A DNA stretch of 24,700 nucleotides. Source: Candidatus Hydrogenedentota bacterium. Its GTDB lineage: Bacteria > Hydrogenedentota > Hydrogenedentia > Hydrogenedentales > SLHB01. This document shows positions 9,426 through 23,381 of this stretch, in pieces. The notes below the pieces were generated by a model. It did no database searches, had not been told where the DNA came from, and saw only the letters and a program-made list of their open reading frames with translations. The position numbers and the translations under genes are program-made. The DNA lies in the NCBI GenBank assembly GCA_045863295.1, contig BTWA01000057.1, positions 1 to 24,700 on the forward strand, given 5' to 3'. Every line of letters begins with the position of its first letter. The stretch's first letter is position 1.

Positions 9426-12365
9426 TCAGATAGAGACGTCTTTTTCCTCGTCGTCTTCCAGCGGATACAAATCAGGCAGAGGCTCCAGCGTGGCCGGCGC
9501 CAGATCGGTCCTTATCGATGCGCGTTTTGCAGGGACCGCGGCGGCCGGCTCGGGTTTGCGTGTGGCGGGCTCGGGCCGCCGTGCCGGTACCGCGGGTTTC
9601 GGCTCGGGCGCCTTTGGCGTGGGTAATTCGGTCTTACCGCTTGGCGAGGCATAGCGTGTGGCCAATTGCGAGAGCGCCTTGGCCGCGCTGGCCAATTCCT
9701 CGCTTTCCTTCTTGTACGCGTCAAACTCCTGTTGCAGCATTGAAAGCTTTCGCTGGATCTCACCGGCTTGCGCGTTGGCCGCCGCCACCTGCCCCGCCGC
9801 TTCCAAGCGCAGGTCGTCCATCTCCTTGGCCGTTTTCTTTCGCGCGTTTTCCGCTTCCATCGCCCGCGTCTCAAGCGAAGCCTTGCCTGCAAGCAAGTCG
9901 TCCAACTCCGCGCGCGCGGCCGCTTGTTCCTTTTCCATTGTGACAACCCGCAACCGGAAATCGTCGCGCTCCCGGCCCATTTCCTCAAGCGCGGAAATCA
10001 ACGTCGCCCGTTGCGACTCGCCACTTTCTACAGCCTCCGCCAATTCTGCCCGGATGGCTTCAAGGTCGCTAAGCCTTCCCGCCAACGCATCGCGATCCGC
10101 GGACACCTGTGCCAGGGCTTCCTGTAATTCCGATTGCTGGTCCTTTGTCGCCGAAAGCGCGGCCTCACGTTCCGAGGCCGCCTGCCGCAATTGCTCATTC
10201 TGTGTTCGCAGGGCGTCCGCTTCGGCCGGGCTGACGGCGAAGCGTTCAGCGATTAGTGCTTCCAACTCACCGATTCTGTTCTCATGTTCGACCCGTTCCA
10301 GCGAAGCTTGCTCGCGGGCCGCCTCCAGCGCTTCGGCCAGGCGTTCAGCGCGCTCGACCAGTATGCGTGCTTCGTCCACGGCCGCGGCGCGTTTCATTTC
10401 CGCGGTTGATAACTCTTGCATCAACTGGTCAACCCGCTCGAGCAACTCGTTCCGCTCAGTCTCTGTCGCCGCCATGTTTCCGGAGAAATCGTTCAGCTTG
10501 GATTGGGCAGTTTCCAATTCACGCTGTGACGACATTAACTGTTGCGACAGGTGATCGGCGTGCTCCTTTGCAGCATCCAATTCCAGTCGCAGTTCATTCA
10601 TTTCAGACTGCATCAGGCCATGCCGCGAACGGGCTTCCTCCACCTCCGAACCCAATTCCGTGGAGCGTTGCTGTTCCGTAGCCAATTGCCCTTCCAGGGT
10701 AACGACTTGCTCGCGCAACGCTTCCGCCACTGAATCGGTCTGCTGCGCACTGGTCTCTATCACTTCTAAATCGGAGCGAACCGAATTCAAGTCCGCGAGT
10801 AACGCGTTTACACGCTCCTCGTGCGCAGACGCCTGATCGCGTATCGAGTTTAGTTCCGTGCGCAAGGTCTCGTTCGCCGCAAGTGCCGTTTCCAATTCTT
10901 CCGAAGCCCGCGCAGCCGTTTCCTTCGCGGCCTGCGCCTCCGCATGGGCTTTTTCGAGCGCTTCCCCCGAGTAACCGCTTTCCGATCGAACGCGTTCAAA
11001 CTCCTGGCGAAGCGACGCCAACTCGGACGTCAACGCTTCTTCTCGGTCCCGCAACGGCCCAATTTCCGATTGCAACGCCTCCAGTTCGGCTCCGGCGACG
11101 GTCTGTTGCTCGCGCGCCTTTTCGGCCTCCTCGTAGGCAACGGCCAGACGGCCTCGCAGCGACTCCATTTCGTCCAACAGTTCTTGTGCGGCATCCTGCG
11201 ATTCCGCCAGCATCGACAAATCGTTGCGCAACTGATCCGCTTCTTGCGCGCTCCGCGTCAGTCCGGCTTCCAACTCGCGCACTCGCTGGCGCAGTGCGTC
11301 CACTTCCGCGCCGCGCGCTTCCGCTTCCACCGCGCGCTGGCTCAGCGCATCTTTCTCCGCGCGAAGCGCGTCGCGGCCGTCGAGCAAAGCCGCCAGTTCG
11401 TCCTTGGCTTCGGCAAGCTGATCCCGCAGGAGATTCGCCGCTTCCTCCGCGCCGAGCCGTGTTTCCAATTCCTCCGCGAGCCGCTTGGCTTGGTGGTGGA
11501 ATTTCTCCGCCTCCTGGCGCGCGTGCAACACCTGTTCCTGATACCGATCAATCTCTGCCTTTGCCGAGTCGTGACTTTCCCGCTGCGTGTTTTCCGCCTG
11601 TCTGCGCACGCGATCGACTTGTTCGCGCAAGCTTGCCAACTCGTCTTGAAGGCTCTCGCATAATTGCCGCGACAGATCGTACTTTTGCGACAATTCCTCG
11701 CGTGCCCGTCGTTCTGCGTCCAACTCCTTGCGCAATGCATCGTGGCCGCCGCCCGGTGCCGGGCCCCCCTTGCCCACACGCTCGAGCAGGGTGCGCAATT
11801 CCTGAATCTCCGCCTTCTGCCGGGAGATTTGCGCTTCAGACTCCTCCCGCACCTGCCGCTTCAATAATTCCACCGGACGTTCACCCAGATGGGGTTTGAT
11901 GGTCACCAGCTTTCCGCCGTCCAGCAATTCCCGAAGTCCAGTGGGAAGGTGCCGCATCCGCGCGGGGTGAACACTCGTGGCAATGACCACCGCATGCCGG
12001 TTATCCAGAAAGATTCGAACGACCGCCTCAAGTTCTTCGAGGTTCTCGGAGAACTTCTCCAACTGATCGACCAGAAATATGGCGGAGGGCGCGTTTTCTA
12101 TCGGGGTGGGATCTTCGATGAGGCCCCGGATGGCCGGCGTAAAGTCATACGACGTGACAAAGCCGAGGCTGCACTTCGCGGCCGAGGCCTTCACATGATT
12201 GACGACGCTGTACAAAAGATGCGTCTTGCCGCACCCCTCATCGCCTATGACTACGACCGGCATCGGAGACACCGGCCGAAACTCCGCCACGGCGAGGCAC
12301 GATTCGTAGGCGAGCCGGTTGGACTCGTCTACTAGAAAAGTGCCAAAATTCAAGCGCTTCATCAA
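9426..12365 (-). CDS. DnaA/Hda-like AAA+ N-terminal domain fused to a long coiled coil
   Basis: Residues ~5-160 resemble DnaA domain III ('FGTFLVDESNRLAY', Walker A GDEGCGKTHLL, 'FLVDQLE'). They are followed by ~750 aa of E/A/L/R/Q-rich heptad sequence and a Pro-rich, acidic tail. Confidence 0.8.
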   Translation of the reverse strand: MMKRLNFGTFLVDESNRLAYESCLAVAEFRPVSPMPVVVIGDEGCGKTHLLYSVVNHVKASAAKCSLGFVTSYDFTPAIRGLIEDPTPIENAPSAIFLVDQLEKFSENLEELEAVVRIFLDNRHAVVIATSVHPARMRHLPTGLRELLDGGKLVTIKPHLGERPVELLKRQVREESEAQISRQKAEIQELRTLLERVGKGGPAPGGGHDALRKELDAERRAREELSQKYDLSRQLCESLQDELASLREQVDRVRRQAENTQRESHDSAKAEIDRYQEQVLHARQEAEKFHHQAKRLAEELETRLGAEEAANLLRDQLAEAKDELAALLDGRDALRAEKDALSQRAVEAEARGAEVDALRQRVRELEAGLTRSAQEADQLRNDLSMLAESQDAAQELLDEMESLRGRLAVAYEEAEKAREQQTVAGAELEALQSEIGPLRDREEALTSELASLRQEFERVRSESGYSGEALEKAHAEAQAAKETAARASEELETALAANETLRTELNSIRDQASAHEERVNALLADLNSVRSDLEVIETSAQQTDSVAEALREQVVTLEGQLATEQQRSTELGSEVEEARSRHGLMQSEMNELRLELDAAKEHADHLSQQLMSSQRELETAQSKLNDFSGNMAATETERNELLERVDQLMQELSTAEMKRAAAVDEARILVERAERLAEALEAAREQASLERVEHENRIGELEALIAERFAVSPAEADALRTQNEQLRQAASEREAALSATKDQQSELQEALAQVSADRDALAGRLSDLEAIRAELAEAVESGESQRATLISALEEMGRERDDFRLRVVTMEKEQAAARAELDDLLAGKASLETRAMEAENARKKTAKEMDDLRLEAAGQVAAANAQAGEIQRKLSMLQQEFDAYKKESEELASAAKALSQLATRYASPSGKTELPTPKAPEPKPAVPARRPEPATRKPEPAAAVPAKRASIRTDLAPATLEPLPDLYPLEDDEEKDVSI

Positions 12366-16661: not shown

Positions 16662-17252
16662 CTAGTTCCCTTTTGCAGCCACAAGGGCCGCCACAGTCCG
16701 CTCGCGCTCTTGCCAATCCACATGGGGCGAGGTAACCTCCGTATAGGGCAGACGCTTAAGAATGTCCAGATTCAGTAAGTGCCTGTAGTGCCGGAGAATC
16801 CGAGTGGCGTGGCGCTCCTGTCCCGGATTCCACCCGCTCGCCTCAACACATTCCTTATCCCGGCCCGCAGCCAGCATCAATTCTTCCACATACCGGCTCA
16901 AGAAATCCTTGCATGCGGCTTCAAACTCGCGCCTGAACCGATCGGTGTCGCCACTTCCCGACTGAACGGCCTCTATCCAGCGGACTTCGAGTTCCATCAC
17001 GTTCTTACGTGCATTCCAATAGGCCTGACGATCGTCCATTTCCCGGAGAATGACCAGTGCCGCGTTCAGTTTGGCCATTTCCAGCGTATAATGGGCCAAT
17101 AGTTGCGGTGTGATGACTTTTTGATGGATCTCCGTGACCAGGGCTTTCATCTTTGACCGGTATTCCTTGCGGACATCGCCGGGCTTTGCGTCTTCGGAAA
17201 CGCCCAGAATGGAGAAATAATTGACGTAACCGGCGTCTGGTGCGGCAGTCAT
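16662..17252 (-). CDS. J-domain-like protein lacking the HPD motif
   Basis: 'NYFSILGVSEDAKPGDVRKEYR' and 'MAKLNAALVILREMDDRQAY' match J-domain helices I-II and III-IV. Start ATG 17252 after GAGG; the ORF track starts at 17372. Confidence 0.75.
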   Translation of the reverse strand: MTAAPDAGYVNYFSILGVSEDAKPGDVRKEYRSKMKALVTEIHQKVITPQLLAHYTLEMAKLNAALVILREMDDRQAYWNARKNVMELEVRWIEAVQSGSGDTDRFRREFEAACKDFLSRYVEELMLAAGRDKECVEASGWNPGQERHATRILRHYRHLLNLDILKRLPYTEVTSPHVDWQERERTVAALVAAKGN

Positions 17253-17286
17253 GGCCTTGTCCTCGGTTGGATTCATTGAACATGCC

Positions 17287-17316
17287 ATTGTACCTATTAA
17301 TAGTGCGGAGAGGCAA
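17287..17316 (-). promoter_or_regulatory. Putative sigma70-type promoter of the J-like...LpxH-like operon
   Basis: Minus strand TTGCCT (17316-17311), 18 nt spacer, TACAAT (17292-17287), about 35 nt before ATG 17252. Confidence 0.5.
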
Positions 17317-17410
17317 TTTGCCTCCCCCTTGGACGCCCGGTCTGCTGGCATCCGGTGGAACAGAGGGTACAACCGGGGCTAAACTGTAAAGAATTTCCCC
17401 TGTCAAACCC

Positions 17411-17439
17411 TTGACATCCCACAGGCCATTTGCTACACT
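17411..17439 (+). promoter_or_regulatory. Sigma70-type promoter of barrel gene 1
   Basis: TTGACA, 17 nt spacer, TACACT with extended TGn. Confidence 0.75.
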
Positions 17440-17506
17440 TCGCCCCTGTGAGGGGTCCATGTGGGTACAGAATTGACCCTGTTTTCCGTATAACTGAGAC
17501 GATAAT

Positions 17507-17593
17507 CATCCAAAGCGGCTTCACATTGGAGGACGAAAGGAGGGATGAAGTCGGGGCCAAAGCACCTGCCTCCGAGGCCGTACGCAAGGGATG
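17507..17593 (+). ncRNA. Conserved structured leader element, copy 1 (candidate cis-regulatory RNA)
   Basis: Aligns without gaps to 19543-19629 (61/87 identical by hand count). Nested helices CATCC/GGATG, GCGGCTT/AGGCCGT and TGGAGG/CCTCCG, with compensatory changes in copy 2. Confidence 0.6.
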
Positions 17594-17634
17594 TCGTTTA
17601 TAGATTTCTGTGTTGCACGTCAGCGTTACCGTGA
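17545..17634 (+). CDS. Candidate leader peptide (uORF) MKSGPKHLPPRPYARDVVYRFLCCTSALP
   Basis: Purine-rich GAAAGGAGGG directly before the ATG; in-frame homologue at 19581 with synonymous changes. Confidence 0.4.
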   Translation: MKSGPKHLPPRPYARDVVYRFLCCTSALP

Positions 17635-17722
17635 GAAGCGGAATTTATTTTCTCACGTGTAGCTGGATGGCCGAGCGGTCGTTAGGACCGGCTCGACAAT
17701 ATAATGGAAGGAGTTTATAGCA

Positions 17723-19324
17723 ATGCGTAAACCATTGCTGTTTGCTGTTGTTGCGGTGGCCGCGCTTGTGGCCGTGCCCGCGATGGCAGAATTGCAGAAC
17801 CTCACGATTGGCGGCGATATCCGCATTCGTGCGAACTACTACTTCAACTACTCGCCGAAGCCGACGGTCGGCGGCGGCGCGGCGACGGCCAGCACCATCA
17901 TTTGGCCGAATTTCTTCCTGCCCCGTCGTCCCATCGGAACGGGCTCCCCGCTGTTGGGCGGTGGCTTCATTGCCAGCGCGCTCTTGTTTGATGATGATCA
18001 AAGCAACGACTTCAACATCATCGAACAGCGCACCCGCATCAACTTCAAAGCGGACTTCACCAACGACGTCAGCGCGTTCATTGAATTGGACAGCTACGAT
18101 ATCTGGGGTGAAGACTTCCGTTCGCGCAACTGGGTGACCGGCTTCGACAACCGCGCCGTCTCCAATGACGACGTGGAAGTGTACCAAGCGTACATCGAAG
18201 CGAACGAAATGTTCGGCTACCCGCTTCGTCTTCGGGTTGGCCGTCAGGAATTGGCCTTCGGCAGCGAGTGGTTGGTGGGCACGAACGACACCGCCGCGCT
18301 GTTCCAGGGTCTGTCCTTTGACGCCCTTCGTCTTACCTACGCGACCGACGTCTTCAGCATTGATGCGTTTGCCTCGAAGTTGAACGACACGACCCCGCGC
18401 GAGCAAGACGGCGACGTGGACTTCTACGGCGTGTACGCCAGCTACCTGGGCCTGGAAGACATCGTGATCGATGCTTACTGGTTCTACCTGCGTGACGCCC
18501 AGCGCCTCAACGACACGAACTTCATCGCGCCGTTGGAAGCGGTGGAAGATCTGCTTGGCCTCGACGACTACGACGTTTCCAACCTTCATACCGTTGGCCT
18601 CCGCGGAGCGGGCACGATCGGTAACTTCGACTTCGAAGCCGAAGCTGCTTATCAGTTCGGTGATGCTGACCAAGTTGGTTTCTTGTTCAAGCCGTTCCTG
18701 TATGGCGATGACGGCGCCGAGTTCGAAGCGTGGGGTGGCAACCTTGAATTGGGTTACACCTTCGACATCGCTTGGCAGCCCCGCGTTTACTTGGGCGGTG
18801 CCTATCTTGACGGTGAAGACGATCGCGACATCAGCTTCTTTGAATGGCTCAGCCCGTTCACGTCGCCTGAAGCCAGCGTGAGCTTCAACCGCCTGTTCTC
18901 GAACTGGGAATACTCCGAGTTCATTGAGAACACCGACCTCTCCAACGTCGCCATCATCCGTGGTGGTGTGAGCGCGATGCCGACCGAAAGCATCGAGCTG
19001 TTGTTGGCCGTGACCTACTTCTGGGCTCTTGAAGAGTTCGATTCCCCGGCTTATTTCTCGGTCGGCGGCTTCAAGGTCCCCGTGGCGCCGGCGCTCTCCT
19101 TCCTGACCCAGCAGAGCGACGACGAACTCGGCTTGGAAGTGGGCCTGTATGCGACGTACCACTACAGTGAAGACCTGTCGTTCTCCGTTGGCTACGCCCA
19201 CTTCTTCACTGAAGACGGCGCTTCCGACGGCAACTTCTCGAACCTGAACGGCACCGGCTTCATCGGTGGCACGAGCGACGACGATCTGGACTACGTGTAC
19301 TTCGAAACGCAAATCACGTTCTAA
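17723..19324 (+). CDS. Outer-membrane beta-barrel, alginate export (AlgE-like) family, paralogue 1
   Basis: Sec signal peptide (AMA|ELQN), 'GGDIRIR', 'EQRTRINF', 'YQAYIE', 'LRVGRQEL.FG', 'FDALRL', alternating beta-strand pattern, C-terminal 'YVYFETQITF' BAM signal, SD AAGGAG. Confidence 0.85.
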   Translation: MRKPLLFAVVAVAALVAVPAMAELQNLTIGGDIRIRANYYFNYSPKPTVGGGAATASTIIWPNFFLPRRPIGTGSPLLGGGFIASALLFDDDQSNDFNIIEQRTRINFKADFTNDVSAFIELDSYDIWGEDFRSRNWVTGFDNRAVSNDDVEVYQAYIEANEMFGYPLRLRVGRQELAFGSEWLVGTNDTAALFQGLSFDALRLTYATDVFSIDAFASKLNDTTPREQDGDVDFYGVYASYLGLEDIVIDAYWFYLRDAQRLNDTNFIAPLEAVEDLLGLDDYDVSNLHTVGLRGAGTIGNFDFEAEAAYQFGDADQVGFLFKPFLYGDDGAEFEAWGGNLELGYTFDIAWQPRVYLGGAYLDGEDDRDISFFEWLSPFTSPEASVSFNRLFSNWEYSEFIENTDLSNVAIIRGGVSAMPTESIELLLAVTYFWALEEFDSPAYFSVGGFKVPVAPALSFLTQQSDDELGLEVGLYATYHYSEDLSFSVGYAHFFTEDGASDGNFSNLNGTGFIGGTSDDDLDYVYFETQITF

Positions 19325-19355
19325 GTTCACGCGTTCAGCTTTCGCTGAGTCCTAC

Positions 19356-19388
19356 GCCCCCGCGAGGTACCTCCTCGCGGGGGCTTTT
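19356..19388 (+). terminator. Intrinsic terminator after barrel gene 1
   Basis: Perfect 12-bp stem GCCCCCGCGAGG/CCTCGCGGGGGC, 5-nt loop, then TTTT. Confidence 0.85.
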
Positions 19389-19447
19389 ACATACCGCCCC
19401 GTTTCACCGGCCGTGCCCTCTCGATCTCCTAAAATCCTCAGAACCCC

Positions 19448-19476
19448 TTGACTCGTTTCGTGCTCCCTGCTATAGT
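19448..19476 (+). promoter_or_regulatory. Sigma70-type promoter of barrel gene 2
   Basis: TTGACT, 17 nt spacer, TATAGT with extended TGn. Confidence 0.75.
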
Positions 19477-19542
19477 GCCAATCTGTTGGGGGATTGTGTA
19501 AACCTATATACGTAATACATCTTTTGCCGTCCAGGGATTCAC

Positions 19543-19629
19543 CATCCAGAGCAACCTCACATCGGGGGATGAAAGGGGGAATGCAGTCAGGTCAGCCATG
19601 CCTGCCTCCGAGGTTGTCCAAGCGGGATG
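19543..19629 (+). ncRNA. Conserved structured leader element, copy 2
   Basis: Helices CATCC/GGATG, GCAACCT/AGGTTGT and CGGGGG/CCTCCG. Same length as copy 1 and nearly the same distance from the -10 (72 vs 73 nt). Confidence 0.6.
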
Positions 19630-19652
19630 TGCCCAATAGATATCGAATGTGA
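19581..19652 (+). CDS. Candidate leader peptide (uORF) MQSGQPCLPPRLSKRDVPNRYRM
   Basis: GAAAGGGGGA before the ATG; ungapped homologue of the uORF at 17545. Confidence 0.4.
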   Translation: MQSGQPCLPPRLSKRDVPNRYRM

Positions 19653-19755
19653 TCAAATGAGCCGGTGTGGACGGGGGAAACAGTTCCATGCATGGCAGGG
19701 GTGCCAACCGAAACCCATTCGGTTCGGCAAACGATTTTCAAAGGAGCTCGAAGCA

Positions 19756-21366
19756 ATGCGTAAACCATTGCTGTTTGCCGTTATTGCGGCGGCCGCGCTT
19801 GTGGCCGTTCCCGCGATGGCGGAACTGCAAAACCTCACGATAGGCGGCGATATCCGCATTCGTGCGAACTACTACTTCAACTACTCGCCGAAACCGACCG
19901 TTGCCGGCGGTGTCGCGACGGCCAGCACCATAATCTGGCCGAACTTCTTCCTGCCTCGACGGCCCATCGGAGCATTTTCTCCGATCGGCGCGATTGCCCC
20001 GTTTGGCGCGATCACAAGTACATTGCTCTTCGACGACGATCAGAGCAATGACTTCAACATGATCGAACAGCGCACACGGCTTAATTTCAAGGCGGACTTC
20101 ACCAACGATGTCAGTGCGTTCATCGAACTGGACAGCTATGACATTTGGGGCGAAGACTTCCGCTCGCAGAATTGGGTGACCGGATTCGACAACCGCGCCG
20201 TTTCCAACAACGACGTGGAAGTGTATCAAGCGTATATCGAAGCGAACGAAATGTTTGGCTATCCGCTTCGCCTGCGCATCGGCCGCCAGGAAATGGCGCT
20301 CGGCAGCGAGTGGTTGATCGGCACGAACGACACCGCCGCGCTGTTTCAAGGCCTGTCTTTCGACGCCATCCGTCTGAGCTATGCAACCGACGTATTTAGC
20401 GTCGACGCATTCATGGCCAAATTGGCTGACACAACCCCGCTCGAACAGGACGGCGACGTCGACCTGTACGGCGTTTATGCCAGCTATCTCGGCCTGGAAG
20501 ACATCGTAATCGATGCTTACTGGCTGTATGTACGTGATGCCCGCCGCCTCAATGACACGAACTTTATCGCGCCGTTGGAAGCGGTGGAAGACCTCCTGGG
20601 TCTCGACAACTACGATGCGACGAATCTTCATACCGTTGGCCTCCGCGGAGCAGGCACCATCGGCAACTTCGACTTTGAAGCCGAAGTCGCGTATCAGTTC
20701 GGTGAAGTTGACCAAGTCGGATTCATGTTCAAGCCGTTCCTGTACGGCGACGATGGCGCAGAGACCAATGCATGGGGTGGAAATCTCGAGTTGGGGTATA
20801 CCTTCGACATCGCATGGCAACCCCGTGTCTACTTGGGAGGCGCATACTTCGACGGTGAAGACAACCGTGACATCACCTTCCTCGAATGGCTCAGCCCGTT
20901 CACCAGTCCGCAGGCGAGTGTCAGTTTCAACCGTCTATTCTCGAACTGGGAATACTCCGAGTTCATTGAGAATACAGAGCTCTCCAACGTTGCCATCATC
21001 CGTGGTGGTGTGAGCGCGATGCCGACCGAAAGCATCGAGCTGTTGTTGGCCGTGACCTACTTCTGGGCGCTTGAAGAATTTGACTCTCCGGCCTATTTCT
21101 CGGTCGGCGGCTTCAAGGTCCCCGTGGCGCCGGCGCTCTCTTTCCTGACCCAGCAGAGCGACGACGAACTCGGCTTGGAAGTGGGCCTGTACGCGACCTA
21201 CCACTACAGCGAAGACCTGTCGTTCTCCGTTGGCTATGCCCACTTCTTTACAGAAGACGGCATCAACGGCGGCAACTTCTCCGGCCTGAACGGCACCGGC
21301 TACCTGGGTGGCACGAGCGACGACGATCTGGACTACGTGTTCTTCGAAACGCAGATCACGTTCTAG
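19756..21366 (+). CDS. Outer-membrane beta-barrel, alginate export (AlgE-like) family, paralogue 2
   Basis: Highly similar to paralogue 1 over its full length. True start is ATG 19756 (MRKPLLF) after SD AAGGAG; C-terminal 'FFETQITF'. Confidence 0.85.
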   Translation: MRKPLLFAVIAAAALVAVPAMAELQNLTIGGDIRIRANYYFNYSPKPTVAGGVATASTIIWPNFFLPRRPIGAFSPIGAIAPFGAITSTLLFDDDQSNDFNMIEQRTRLNFKADFTNDVSAFIELDSYDIWGEDFRSQNWVTGFDNRAVSNNDVEVYQAYIEANEMFGYPLRLRIGRQEMALGSEWLIGTNDTAALFQGLSFDAIRLSYATDVFSVDAFMAKLADTTPLEQDGDVDLYGVYASYLGLEDIVIDAYWLYVRDARRLNDTNFIAPLEAVEDLLGLDNYDATNLHTVGLRGAGTIGNFDFEAEVAYQFGEVDQVGFMFKPFLYGDDGAETNAWGGNLELGYTFDIAWQPRVYLGGAYFDGEDNRDITFLEWLSPFTSPQASVSFNRLFSNWEYSEFIENTELSNVAIIRGGVSAMPTESIELLLAVTYFWALEEFDSPAYFSVGGFKVPVAPALSFLTQQSDDELGLEVGLYATYHYSEDLSFSVGYAHFFTEDGINGGNFSGLNGTGYLGGTSDDDLDYVFFETQITF

Positions 21367-21395
21367 AAGTACACGTCCGACACACGCTGATATCT

Positions 21396-21436
21396 CCGCC
21401 CCTGTGGGACTTCTCCTGCAGGGGCGGGTCCTTTTT
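21396..21436 (+). terminator. Intrinsic terminator after barrel gene 2
   Basis: Stem CCGCCCCTGTGGGA/TCCTGCAGGGGCGG (with G-U pairs), loop CTTC, followed by a T-tract. Confidence 0.8.
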
Positions 21437-21477
21437 CCGCCCAGTAAACCCATCTTGCCTACGCTCAGTATAAACTA

Positions 21478-21506
21478 TTGACAAAAAATACAATCTGCGA
21501 TATATT
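21478..21506 (+). promoter_or_regulatory. Sigma70-type promoter of barrel gene 3
   Basis: TTGACA, 17 nt spacer, TATATT. Confidence 0.7.
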
Positions 21507-21770
21507 TCGAAGTTAATGGGAGTCCGCCGAGTACGTGCCTGACAAAGCCGAACGTCCGGCCGGAATTCGATGACCACGCATTTTCGGGCCCGGAGCGGAT
21601 GTAGGGGTTAGGCTCTGGAGTACGGCCAACCGACTTTTGATTCGAACAAACGTATTCAGGGGAGATTGGGTTTGCACCCACGAACCGGATGCATAGCTGC
21701 GGTCGAACCACGGCAATGCAGGCGAAGTCAAATCCCAGGCTCGACATATAACTGAAAGGAGCCCAAGGAA

Positions 21771-23381
21771 ATGCGCATATGCCTGCTACTCGTCTTCACG
21801 GCAATGGCCGTGCTTGTGGGCGTGCCGGCAATGGCGGAAGTGCAAAACATCACTATTGGCGGCACCATCCACATCCGAGCCAACTATTACTTCAACTATT
21901 CCCCAAAACCAACGGTGATCGGCGGTGTTCCAACCGCAAATACCATAATCTGGCCCAACTTCTTCCTTCCACGCCGTCCGATTGGGTCTTTTTCGCCGTT
22001 AGGCGGCATCGCCCCCTTTGGCGCCGTAACCAGTTCCCTGCTTTTTGATGATGATCAGAGCAATGATCTCAGCCTGATCGAACAGCGCACGCGAATCAAC
22101 TTCAAAGCGGATTTTACGAATGACGTCAGCGCGTTCATCGAATTAGAGAGCTACGACTTTTGGGGCGAGGATTTCCGGTCCCGAAATTGGGTCACCGGTT
22201 TCGACAACCGTGCCGTCTCCACCGACGACGTTGAAATGTTTCAGGCGTACATAGAGGCCAATGAGATGTTCGGCTATCCTTTGCGCCTGCGGGTAGGCCG
22301 TCAGGAAATATCATTGGGTAGCGAATGGCTGGTGGGCACCAACAACACCCCGTCGTTCTTCGCGGGCCTCTCGTTTGACGCTCTTCGGCTAACCTATGCC
22401 ACCGATGTGTTCAGTATCGACGCATTCGCTTCCAAGTTGAACGACACCACACCCCGTGAACAAGACGGCGATGTGGACTTTTACGGCGTCTATGCCAGCT
22501 ACCTGGGCCTTGAAGACATCGTATTCGATGCCTACTGGCTCTATCTGCGCGATGCCCAGCGTCTCAACGACACCAACTTCATTGCCCCGTTGGAGGCCGT
22601 GGAAGATTTGCTCGGTCTGGACGACTACGATGTTTCCAACCTTCACACGGTCGGATTGCGCGGCGCGGGTACCATCGGGAACTTCGACTTCGAAGCCGAA
22701 GCGGCGTATCAGTTCGGCGATGCCGGTCAAGTGGGTTTCCTGTTCAAACCGTTCCTATACGGCGACGACGGCGCCGAGTTCGACGCGTGGGGAGGCAATC
22801 TTGAACTCGGCTACACGTTCGATGTCGCTTGGCAACCCCGCGTATATTTGGGCGGAGCTTACTTCGAAGGGGAAGACGATCGCGACATTAGCTTTCTGGA
22901 ATGGCTCAGCCCGTTCACCCGTCCCGAGGCCAGCGTCAGTTTCAACCGGTTATTCTCCAGTTGGGAATACTCTGAGTTTCTCGAGAACTCGGAAATGTCC
23001 AATGTGATGCTGGTTCGCGGCGGCGTGGGAGCCATGCCGACGGAGAGCATTGAGTTGTTGCTTGCTGTCAGCTACTTCTGGGCACTCGAAGAGTTCGATT
23101 CCCCGGCCTATTTCTCGGTCGGCGGTTTTAAAATGCCCGTCGCGCCCGCCTTGTCGTTCCTCACTCAGAAGAGTGAAGATGAACTCGGCCTGGAAGTTGG
23201 CCTCTATGCGACCTACCACTACAGCGAAGATTTGGCCTTCTCGGTGGGCTACGCCCACTTTTTCACGGAAGACGGCGCAGCCGACGGCAGCTTCTATGCG
23301 CTGAACGGCACGGCATTTCTTGGCGGTGGCGGCGACGACGACCTCGACTACGTGTATTTCGAGACCCAACTCAGCTTCTAG
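21771..23381 (+). CDS. Outer-membrane beta-barrel, alginate export (AlgE-like) family, paralogue 3
   Basis: Full-length paralogue with signal peptide (AMA|EVQN), C-terminal 'YVYFETQLSF' and SD AAGGAG. Confidence 0.85.
   Translation: MRICLLLVFTAMAVLVGVPAMAEVQNITIGGTIHIRANYYFNYSPKPTVIGGVPTANTIIWPNFFLPRRPIGSFSPLGGIAPFGAVTSSLLFDDDQSNDLSLIEQRTRINFKADFTNDVSAFIELESYDFWGEDFRSRNWVTGFDNRAVSTDDVEMFQAYIEANEMFGYPLRLRVGRQEISLGSEWLVGTNNTPSFFAGLSFDALRLTYATDVFSIDAFASKLNDTTPREQDGDVDFYGVYASYLGLEDIVFDAYWLYLRDAQRLNDTNFIAPLEAVEDLLGLDDYDVSNLHTVGLRGAGTIGNFDFEAEAAYQFGDAGQVGFLFKPFLYGDDGAEFDAWGGNLELGYTFDVAWQPRVYLGGAYFEGEDDRDISFLEWLSPFTRPEASVSFNRLFSSWEYSEFLENSEMSNVMLVRGGVGAMPTESIELLLAVSYFWALEEFDSPAYFSVGGFKMPVAPALSFLTQKSEDELGLEVGLYATYHYSEDLAFSVGYAHFFTEDGAADGSFYALNGTAFLGGGGDDDLDYVYFETQLSF

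Follow-up and report, generated by a model that had tools for sequence, protein, structure and literature searches.

In Escherichia coli, ompA's 5' untranslated region (5' UTR) acts as a stabiliser whose effect depends on stem-loops together with ribosome binding, and which uses the gene's own ribosome-binding site (RBS) and involves competition by Hfq. In translational attenuation leaders of the ermC type, which carry conserved leader peptides and rely on drug-responsive stalling, the leader-bound ribosome stabilises the downstream mRNA. Among Shine-Dalgarno (SD) sequences, the STAB-SD of the cry3A mRNA is described as a 5'-UTR SD at which the 30S subunit is bound and the mRNA stabilised (PMC4113751), and several long-lived mRNAs are reported to owe stability to a strong SD, for which no start codon is needed (PMC3997798). 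Among standby sites, a second ribosome docks upstream at such a site on the highly translated lpp mRNA (PMC5924895), and tisB is described as requiring both an upstream single-stranded site and 5' structure (PMC6690012, PMC7708055). Here we describe a folded leader RNA that occurs in two copies, each 5' of a porin gene, in a 24,700-nt stretch of DNA from a Candidatus Hydrogenedentota bacterium (contig BTWA01000057.1, positions 1 to 24,700; hereafter the window). The element is a well-supported new structured RNA family: its 103 distinct sequences covary strongly and match nothing in Rfam. Its role is probably the one that stabilisers of the SD type or standby sites, which lack structure, fulfil in other organisms. 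To our knowledge, all described stabilisers of that type and all described standby sites are short, species-specific sequences without structure, and we know of no post-transcriptional control described for Hydrogenedentota.

The two copies are 87-nt blocks that end 125–130 nt before porin genes 1 and 2, 3' of consensus promoters (Table 1). They align without gaps, and a column count gave 61 of 87 identical positions, the figure already obtained in a first-pass annotation made from the sequence alone. That annotation had also placed the blocks 73 and 72 nt from their -10 boxes, which are the distances to the starts of the hexamers, and had proposed three helices whose coordinates and base pairs all proved correct: P1 is CATCC/GGATG, and P2 differs between the copies by two G-C to A-U swaps and one U-G to C-G change. 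When the 6.3-Mb source genome was searched at the DNA level with copy 1, copy 2 was the sole significant match (E 5.9e-6), and a covariance model likewise recovered only the two window copies. The caution that two copies lend limited support was justified, as single-sequence folding gave z-scores of -1.1 and -0.5 relative to shuffled sequences, neither of them significant. On the two copies alone the fold is indistinguishable from chance, and the helices become significant only with relatives; a covariance model was therefore built to reach these.

The first covariance model, built from the two window copies, gave full-length matches in 22 of 61 related genomes, and these matches, 29 in all, were used for a second model, which incorporated P3 as first proposed. 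With this second model (E<=0.01), the element was detected in 104 of 135 Hydrogenedentota genomes and in 70 of the 86 high-quality ones, at one to three copies per genome. About 140 places were listed, of which 105 were fetched and aligned, yielding the 103 distinct sequences. The link to the porin family is phylum-wide: 102 of the 105 copies lie on the sense strand, 48–168 nt (median 107) 5' of the start of a homologous porin gene, whose product begins M-R-K and continues into a signal peptide ending AELQNV. The three exceptions comprise two copies with too little downstream DNA and one weak, degenerate match. Promoter-like sites (score >=10 of 12) precede 71 of the 105 copies, with 16–165 nt (median 76) between the end of the -10 hexamer and the element, and they place the predicted transcription start site (TSS) before the element rather than downstream of it. 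In one family (f13), the -10 hexamer lies only 16–20 nt before the element, which begins ~10–15 nt from the predicted 5' end and therefore stands at the predicted mRNA 5' end there. In another family (f10), the element was found in 0 of 6 genomes, and the porin leaders, with promoters ~100–170 nt upstream, contain neither a copy nor GAAAGGAGG. Several public contigs (loci L056, L058, L060, L062 and others) with the same porin, and partly with the same leader element, are labelled Nitrospirales, Nitrospiraceae or Bathyarchaeia metagenome-assembled genome (MAG); these labels look doubtful.

Searches against Rfam 15 (4227 families) returned no match at the gathering score across the whole window, none overlapping the element at E<=10 in the region 17350-21800, and none at E<=1 in the loci of 10 relatives. 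A full-text literature search, with most subscription journals outside its scope, found no riboswitch or RNA motif reported for Hydrogenedentes/Hydrogenedentota. The initial claim of an undescribed, structured, cis-acting leader RNA is upheld by this lack of Rfam matches, by the position of the copies 5' of porin genes and by the covariation described below.

In the model-guided alignment of the 103 sequences, 89.3% of the cells are standard pairs versus 67.3% in shuffles, and 529 cells are compensatory versus 158, a number as high being reached in 0 of 500 shuffles. Double changes occur in 20 of 21 pairs, and compensatory changes in 16 of the 17 pairs of P1-P2-P3, so that the covariation first suspected from two copies is abundant across the family. 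The paired fraction is 91.7% for P1, 94.0% for P2, 89.6% for the P2 extension and 92.3% for P3, and it falls to 29–45% when, as a control, the 3' partners are slid by one to three columns. In a structure-free mutual-information scan, the top 12 column pairs are all helix pairs; the scan returned no pseudoknot and no contact to the loop, and its sole new pair (columns 12/152) extends P2. Because the model-guided alignment had been fitted to the structure, the test was repeated on a structure-blind MAFFT alignment of 102 sequences, with the weak match L037 left out. On this alignment RNAalifold finds the 8-bp P2 unaided, and the full structure is 85.1% paired versus 72.4% shuffled, with a lower value for P3 (70.3%) owing to register slips.

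P3 joins a 5' xGGAG segment to a 3' CUCC and co-varies to GGCA/UGCC, GGAC/GUCC, CGAG/CUCG, GCGA/UCGC and others, whereas P1 is almost invariant in sequence despite being a helix. Two smaller features of the original proposal fared less well. The GA(C/T)...GTC helix, thought to close the loop, is paired in only 29–39% of sequences and is not conserved; the CACAT bulge is indeed conserved between the two window copies, but across the phylum its first C pairs within P2 and its other bases vary. P4 is a short hairpin, variable and weak; its segment has a median of 22 nt and -3.0 kcal/mol, with no predicted hairpin in 17 of 103 sequences. The element is best drawn as a long irregular stem (P1-P2-P3, ~17 bp) that closes a ~38-nt loop. 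Beyond the stem, AUAGA(U) occurs 5–8 nt after P1 in 46 of 103 copies versus 0 of 101 control windows, and the looser AUA[GA]A in 70 of 103; a search for a pairing partner of this tail gave none. In 24 of 100 leaders, AUAGA-like words also stand immediately 5' of the porin gene's SD.

The loop contains a core, G-R-A-A-G-G-A-G-G-N-A-U-G, that is nearly invariant among the 103 distinct sequences. The first-pass annotation had recorded a purine-rich loop here, which is present, and had missed that it reads as a perfect SD followed by an AUG. The 16S rRNA gene of the source genome is cut at a contig end, and the 16S tail was taken from relatives: the 3' ends of all six gene copies in five relatives' genomes are GAUCACCUCCUUUCU, and the core GAAAGGAGG is therefore a 9-nt perfect complement of the ribosome tail. 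Its four A positions, which face U, change only to G (in 29, 4, 1 and 4 of 103 sequences), and its five G positions, which face C, show <=1 change each; changes in the core thus stay wobble-compatible, as expected for pairing with the U and C of 16S rRNA. For hybrids with the 16S tail, the predicted median energy is -18.4 kcal/mol for the core, compared with -8.8 kcal/mol for the porin genes' own RBS, a difference of ~10 kcal/mol in favour of the core. The feature by which a STAB-SD is recognised, a 16S-complementary SD in the 5' UTR remote from the gene start, is present in the element.

One base after the core stands an AUG, in 101 of 103 sequences; the intervening base is G in 89, A in 12 and U in 2. 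In the source genome, SD-ATG pairs are enriched at spacings of 6–9 nt and show no enrichment at 1 nt, and genuine RBSs with the identical 9-mer have their ATG 4–9 nt away. Judged from these spacings, the SD-AUG geometry of the loop differs from that of a working start site in this genome, and the frame behind the AUG, which spans 4–60 codons with neither peptide nor stop position in common, appears unconstrained. The upstream open reading frames (uORFs) so defined have a median length of 16 versus 18 in a control frame, and 5 of 99 stop within three codons. The loop AUG is followed by a short region with little predicted structure (median 22 nt, -3.0 kcal/mol).

It is quite possible, and this is the interpretation that we tentatively favour, that the element is a conserved, structured 5'-UTR ribosome-capture leader acting as a stabiliser or standby site. 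From its loop we infer ribosome binding, with the following consequence. The three covarying helices would close a loop that presents the almost invariant GAAAGGAGG-N-AUG, and a 30S subunit would pair its 16S 3' tail, CCUCCUUUC, with the 9-mer far more tightly than with the porin's own RBS. The captured subunit would then linger on the leader, as expected if the loop AUG is too near the SD for normal initiation. A ribosome parked in this way may protect the porin mRNA, which is transcribed at a very high level, against decay that starts from the 5' end through RNase E/G or RNase Y. The source genome encodes an RNase E/G homologue and RNase Y, and RNase E, scanning from the 5' end, is described as impeded by mRNA-bound ribosomes (PMC9943677). 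The parked subunit may also be on standby for the real start codon ~175 nt downstream, which itself lies in a small hairpin, and such pre-loading could help; the amount of porin made would in that case track the availability of free ribosomes. In a more specific version, which we regard as doubtful, the scaffold would trap the 30S subunit in a long-lived, non-translating complex, by a 9–12 bp duplex and the too-close AUG, and would serve as a cis-acting 'ribosome sensor', through which the free-ribosome pool would be reflected in how long the major porin mRNAs last and how much they are translated.

Several observations weigh against ribosome capture. The predicted unpaired probability of the core SD averages 0.58 versus 0.41 for the rest of the element, an only moderate exposure, and the minimum-energy fold of both window copies pairs the loop GGAGG with CCUCC. 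The latter fold was rejected as the conserved one, given that the 5' segment covaries with the 3' strand and the loop does not: the alternative core:CUCC pairing is 79.4% paired versus 79.0% in shuffles, without covariation, and all 4 of its 4 pairs are possible in 46 of 103 sequences. Where this pairing can form it is mostly the less stable of the two: the covarying P3 is better in 41 sequences, tied in 16 and worse in 19, and it abolishes the competing pairing in many lineages. The purine-only variation of the core could equally reflect protein recognition or a ligand pocket. A pure docking site needs no AUG, yet the AUG is invariant; in duplexfold predictions its G-A-U neighbourhood pairs with a 16S AUC across a bulge, and this explains neither the last G of the AUG nor the free base before it. 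The AUAGA tail and the invariant sequence of P1 are likewise left unexplained. Family f10 retains 5–7 porin homologues per genome, none with the element, which is therefore dispensable. As to stabilisation, a review describes an E. coli ribosome bound at the 5' end as giving distal sequence poor protection (PMC3997798). Finally, RNase J (TIGR00649, E<=1e-30) was found in 0 of 135 Hydrogenedentota genomes by a search that was positive in 10 of 14 reference genomes as a control, and the best match in the source genome reaches 45.7 bits versus a cut-off of 400. The known STAB-SD route, a block of RNase J1, therefore cannot apply, and we accordingly place the element outside that class, as one that would work in the manner of a STAB-SD or a standby site.

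In detail, the STAB-SD of Bacillus thuringiensis cry3A (Agaisse & Lereclus 1996, as described in PMC4113751) shares with the element a 5'-UTR SD that lies far from the start codon and is complementary to the 16S 3' end, and is proposed to retain a 30S subunit on an mRNA of very high expression. It consists of the sequence alone and lacks both the conserved RNA scaffold and the adjacent AUG that the element has; it acts by blocking the 5'-3' exonuclease RNase J1 and is known from Firmicutes, whereas the element belongs to a diderm candidate phylum. Its 9-mer is reportedly GAAAGGAGG as well. Standby sites (tisB, MS2 coat, lpp; PMC6690012, PMC7708055, PMC5924895) resemble the proposed element in that a 30S subunit waits upstream, in a long or structured 5' UTR, before a partly sequestered RBS, and the product of lpp is an outer-membrane protein of very high abundance, as are those of the porin genes here. 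The known sites are however described as unstructured and S1-dependent, with no SD-anti-SD duplex and no phylum-wide covarying family. The tether of the element would be a duplex of about -18 kcal/mol, which could hinder rather than help transfer to the real RBS. Like the ompA 5' UTR, the element is a long, folded leader on the mRNA of a major outer-membrane protein; the two show no similarity in sequence or structure, and Hfq, which competes at ompA, was not detected here.

That the loop is a genuine translation start is an alternative that we consider unlikely. Translation of a short uORF, the act and not the peptide, would then unzip the 3' strands of P3, P2 and P1 and so modulate access to the porin RBS or mRNA decay. 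The joint retention of SD and AUG, with a free preceding base and an A-rich second codon, agrees with this proposal, as do the ~22 nt of weakly structured RNA after the AUG. None of 97 uORFs runs in frame into the porin gene, but this is close to the 2–3 estimated by chance and therefore carries no weight. The 1-nt SD-AUG spacing falls outside the genome's functional 6–9 nt window, no GUG or UUG variants occur among the 103 sequences, and the lengths of the uORFs, which share no peptide or stop, are distributed as in the control frame. A conserved leader peptide of the uORF attenuator kind was rejected, there being no conserved peptide, length or stop position. Leaders of the ermC type, which PMC3997798 mentions, likewise hold an SD and AUG inside a folded leader; the element departs from them in its unconstrained frame and abnormal SD-AUG spacing.

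Ribosome capture also has to be weighed against a riboswitch, in which the loop and flanking helices would be the binding site of a small molecule, such as a substrate of the porin or a metabolite related to the envelope, and so alter the fate of the porin mRNA. A covarying fold with invariant unpaired bases and a single gene family is the profile of many orphan riboswitch candidates, and the element, with its covariation-supported fold, near-invariant unpaired nucleotides, restriction to one gene family across the phylum and lack of Rfam matches, fits it. It resembles the orphan candidates held in Rfam in being lineage-restricted as well, and differs from them in that its invariant nucleotides spell a ribosome-binding consensus. 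Within the large loop these nucleotides occupy a single strand and do not surround a multi-helix junction, they form an exact anti-16S complement with wobble-only variation, and the mutual-information scan shows no extra covarying contacts or pseudoknot. Nor was an expression platform found, be it a terminator or a competing alternative helix: there is no terminator-like site within leader 1 or leader 2, and the sole candidate alternative helix is without covariation. We hence regard a riboswitch as improbable. The background assumption of the first-pass annotation was that such leaders are typical riboswitch or attenuator sites; here the loop with its SD and AUG points to ribosome capture instead.

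Another trans-acting factor on the loop, either an RNA-binding protein specific for GGA-rich loops or a small RNA (sRNA) with a CCUCC-type seed, is in our judgement no less improbable. Post-transcriptional regulators of other phyla classically act on porin mRNAs, sites for proteins or sRNAs typically show an invariant loop on a stem that varies, and the loop has two GGA motifs in a genome that encodes CsrA. The distribution of CsrA does not track that of the element: of the 23 genomes of family f11, 15 have the element and 1 has CsrA, and all 6 genomes of family f10 have CsrA and none of them the element. CsrA was accordingly disfavoured as the partner despite its presence in the source genome, since its phylum profile does not follow the element. 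An sRNA seed would need to be an exact copy of the 16S tail, and ribosomes greatly outnumber any sRNA; in the source genome, which is 96% complete, no Hfq was found. As a separate observation, 104 of all 135 genomes have CsrA (PF02599), compared with 1 of 23 in family f11, which suggests a lineage-specific loss. A reading of the element as nothing more than a protective stem-loop, stabilising the 5' end by its structure and with a partnerless SD-like loop, is very improbable: 5'-terminal stem-loops do stabilise mRNAs such as ompA, and family f13 has the element at the predicted transcript 5' end, but 55–100 nt precede it in most families, and a partnerless loop would not stay invariant across the phylum while the stems change freely.

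The window locus comprises three tandem genes for proteins of ~535 aa that match Pfam Alginate_exp, an outer-membrane beta-barrel family, each with a separate sigma-70-like promoter and a leader of ~260–280 nt; strong terminator-like hairpins close porin genes 1 and 2 (Table 1). The leader of porin gene 3 (~258 nt; window 21478-21770) holds no copy of the element, which makes this gene a natural internal control. Contigs assembled from RNA libraries span the leader and porin gene 1 at 17534-18003 (run X2) and 17603-17997 (run X1). They are loosely in agreement with co-transcription of leader and porin, as assembled contigs give no start, strand or level and could derive from DNA. Each run yielded one such contig; none spanned 17250-17533 or leader 2, an absence that carries no weight. 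A small conserved hairpin encloses the porin start codon; in most relatives it reads ACGCA-nnA-UGCGU, so the second codon is fixed as CGU. Elsewhere in the window, 9426-12365 on the minus strand is a 979-aa open reading frame with an N-terminal DnaA-type ATPase domain, followed by a long stretch that weakly matches coiled-coil families.

Table 1. Coordinates, within the window, of the leader element and of the associated porin genes and signals.
Feature	Position	Strand	Details
Porin gene 1	17723..19324	+	Pfam Alginate_exp, 533 aa
Porin gene 2	19756..21366	+	Pfam Alginate_exp, 536 aa
Porin gene 3	21771-23381		third tandem Alginate_exp paralogue
Promoter-like site, leader 1	17411..17439	+	TTGACA-17-TACACT; predicted TSS near 17446
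Promoter-like site, leader 2	19448..19476	+	TTGACT-17-TATAGT
Promoter-like site, porin gene 3	21478-21506		near-consensus TTGACA-17-TATATT
Element copy 1	17507..17593	+	P1 17507-17511/17589-17593; P2 17515-17522/17574-17581; P3 17528-17532/17569-17573
Element copy 1, P4	17552-17555/17565-17568	+	weak, variable
Element copy 2	19543..19629	+	P1 19543-19547/19625-19629; P2 19551-19558/19610-19617; P3 19564-19568/19605-19609
Core loop, copy 1	17535..17547	+	GAAAGGAGGGATG: 9-nt complement of the 16S 3' tail, one base, ATG 17545-17547
Core loop, copy 2	19571..19583	+	GAAAGGGGGAATG, ATG 19581-19583
Conserved 3' tail ATAGAT after P1, copy 1	17600..17605	+	
Conserved 3' tail ATAGAT, copy 2	19636..19641	+	
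Ribosome-binding site and start, porin gene 1	17708..17739	+	AAGGAG 17708-17713; ATG 17723; start-codon hairpin AGCAATG/CATTGCT 17719-17739
Ribosome-binding site and start, porin gene 2			SD AAGGAG 19741-19746; start-codon hairpin 19752-19772

In these bacteria, the porins whose genes carry the element are probably the outer-membrane proteins of highest abundance. If ribosome capture is true, the element would be the first folded scaffold to have evolved, and been kept, for capturing ribosomes through a displayed SD and AUG, and it would occur in a lineage without RNase J, the enzyme behind the classic STAB-SD. Should it also act as a 'ribosome sensor', this would have no described counterpart as a structured RNA family. 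Being short and sharply defined, the element could serve as a portable expression element.

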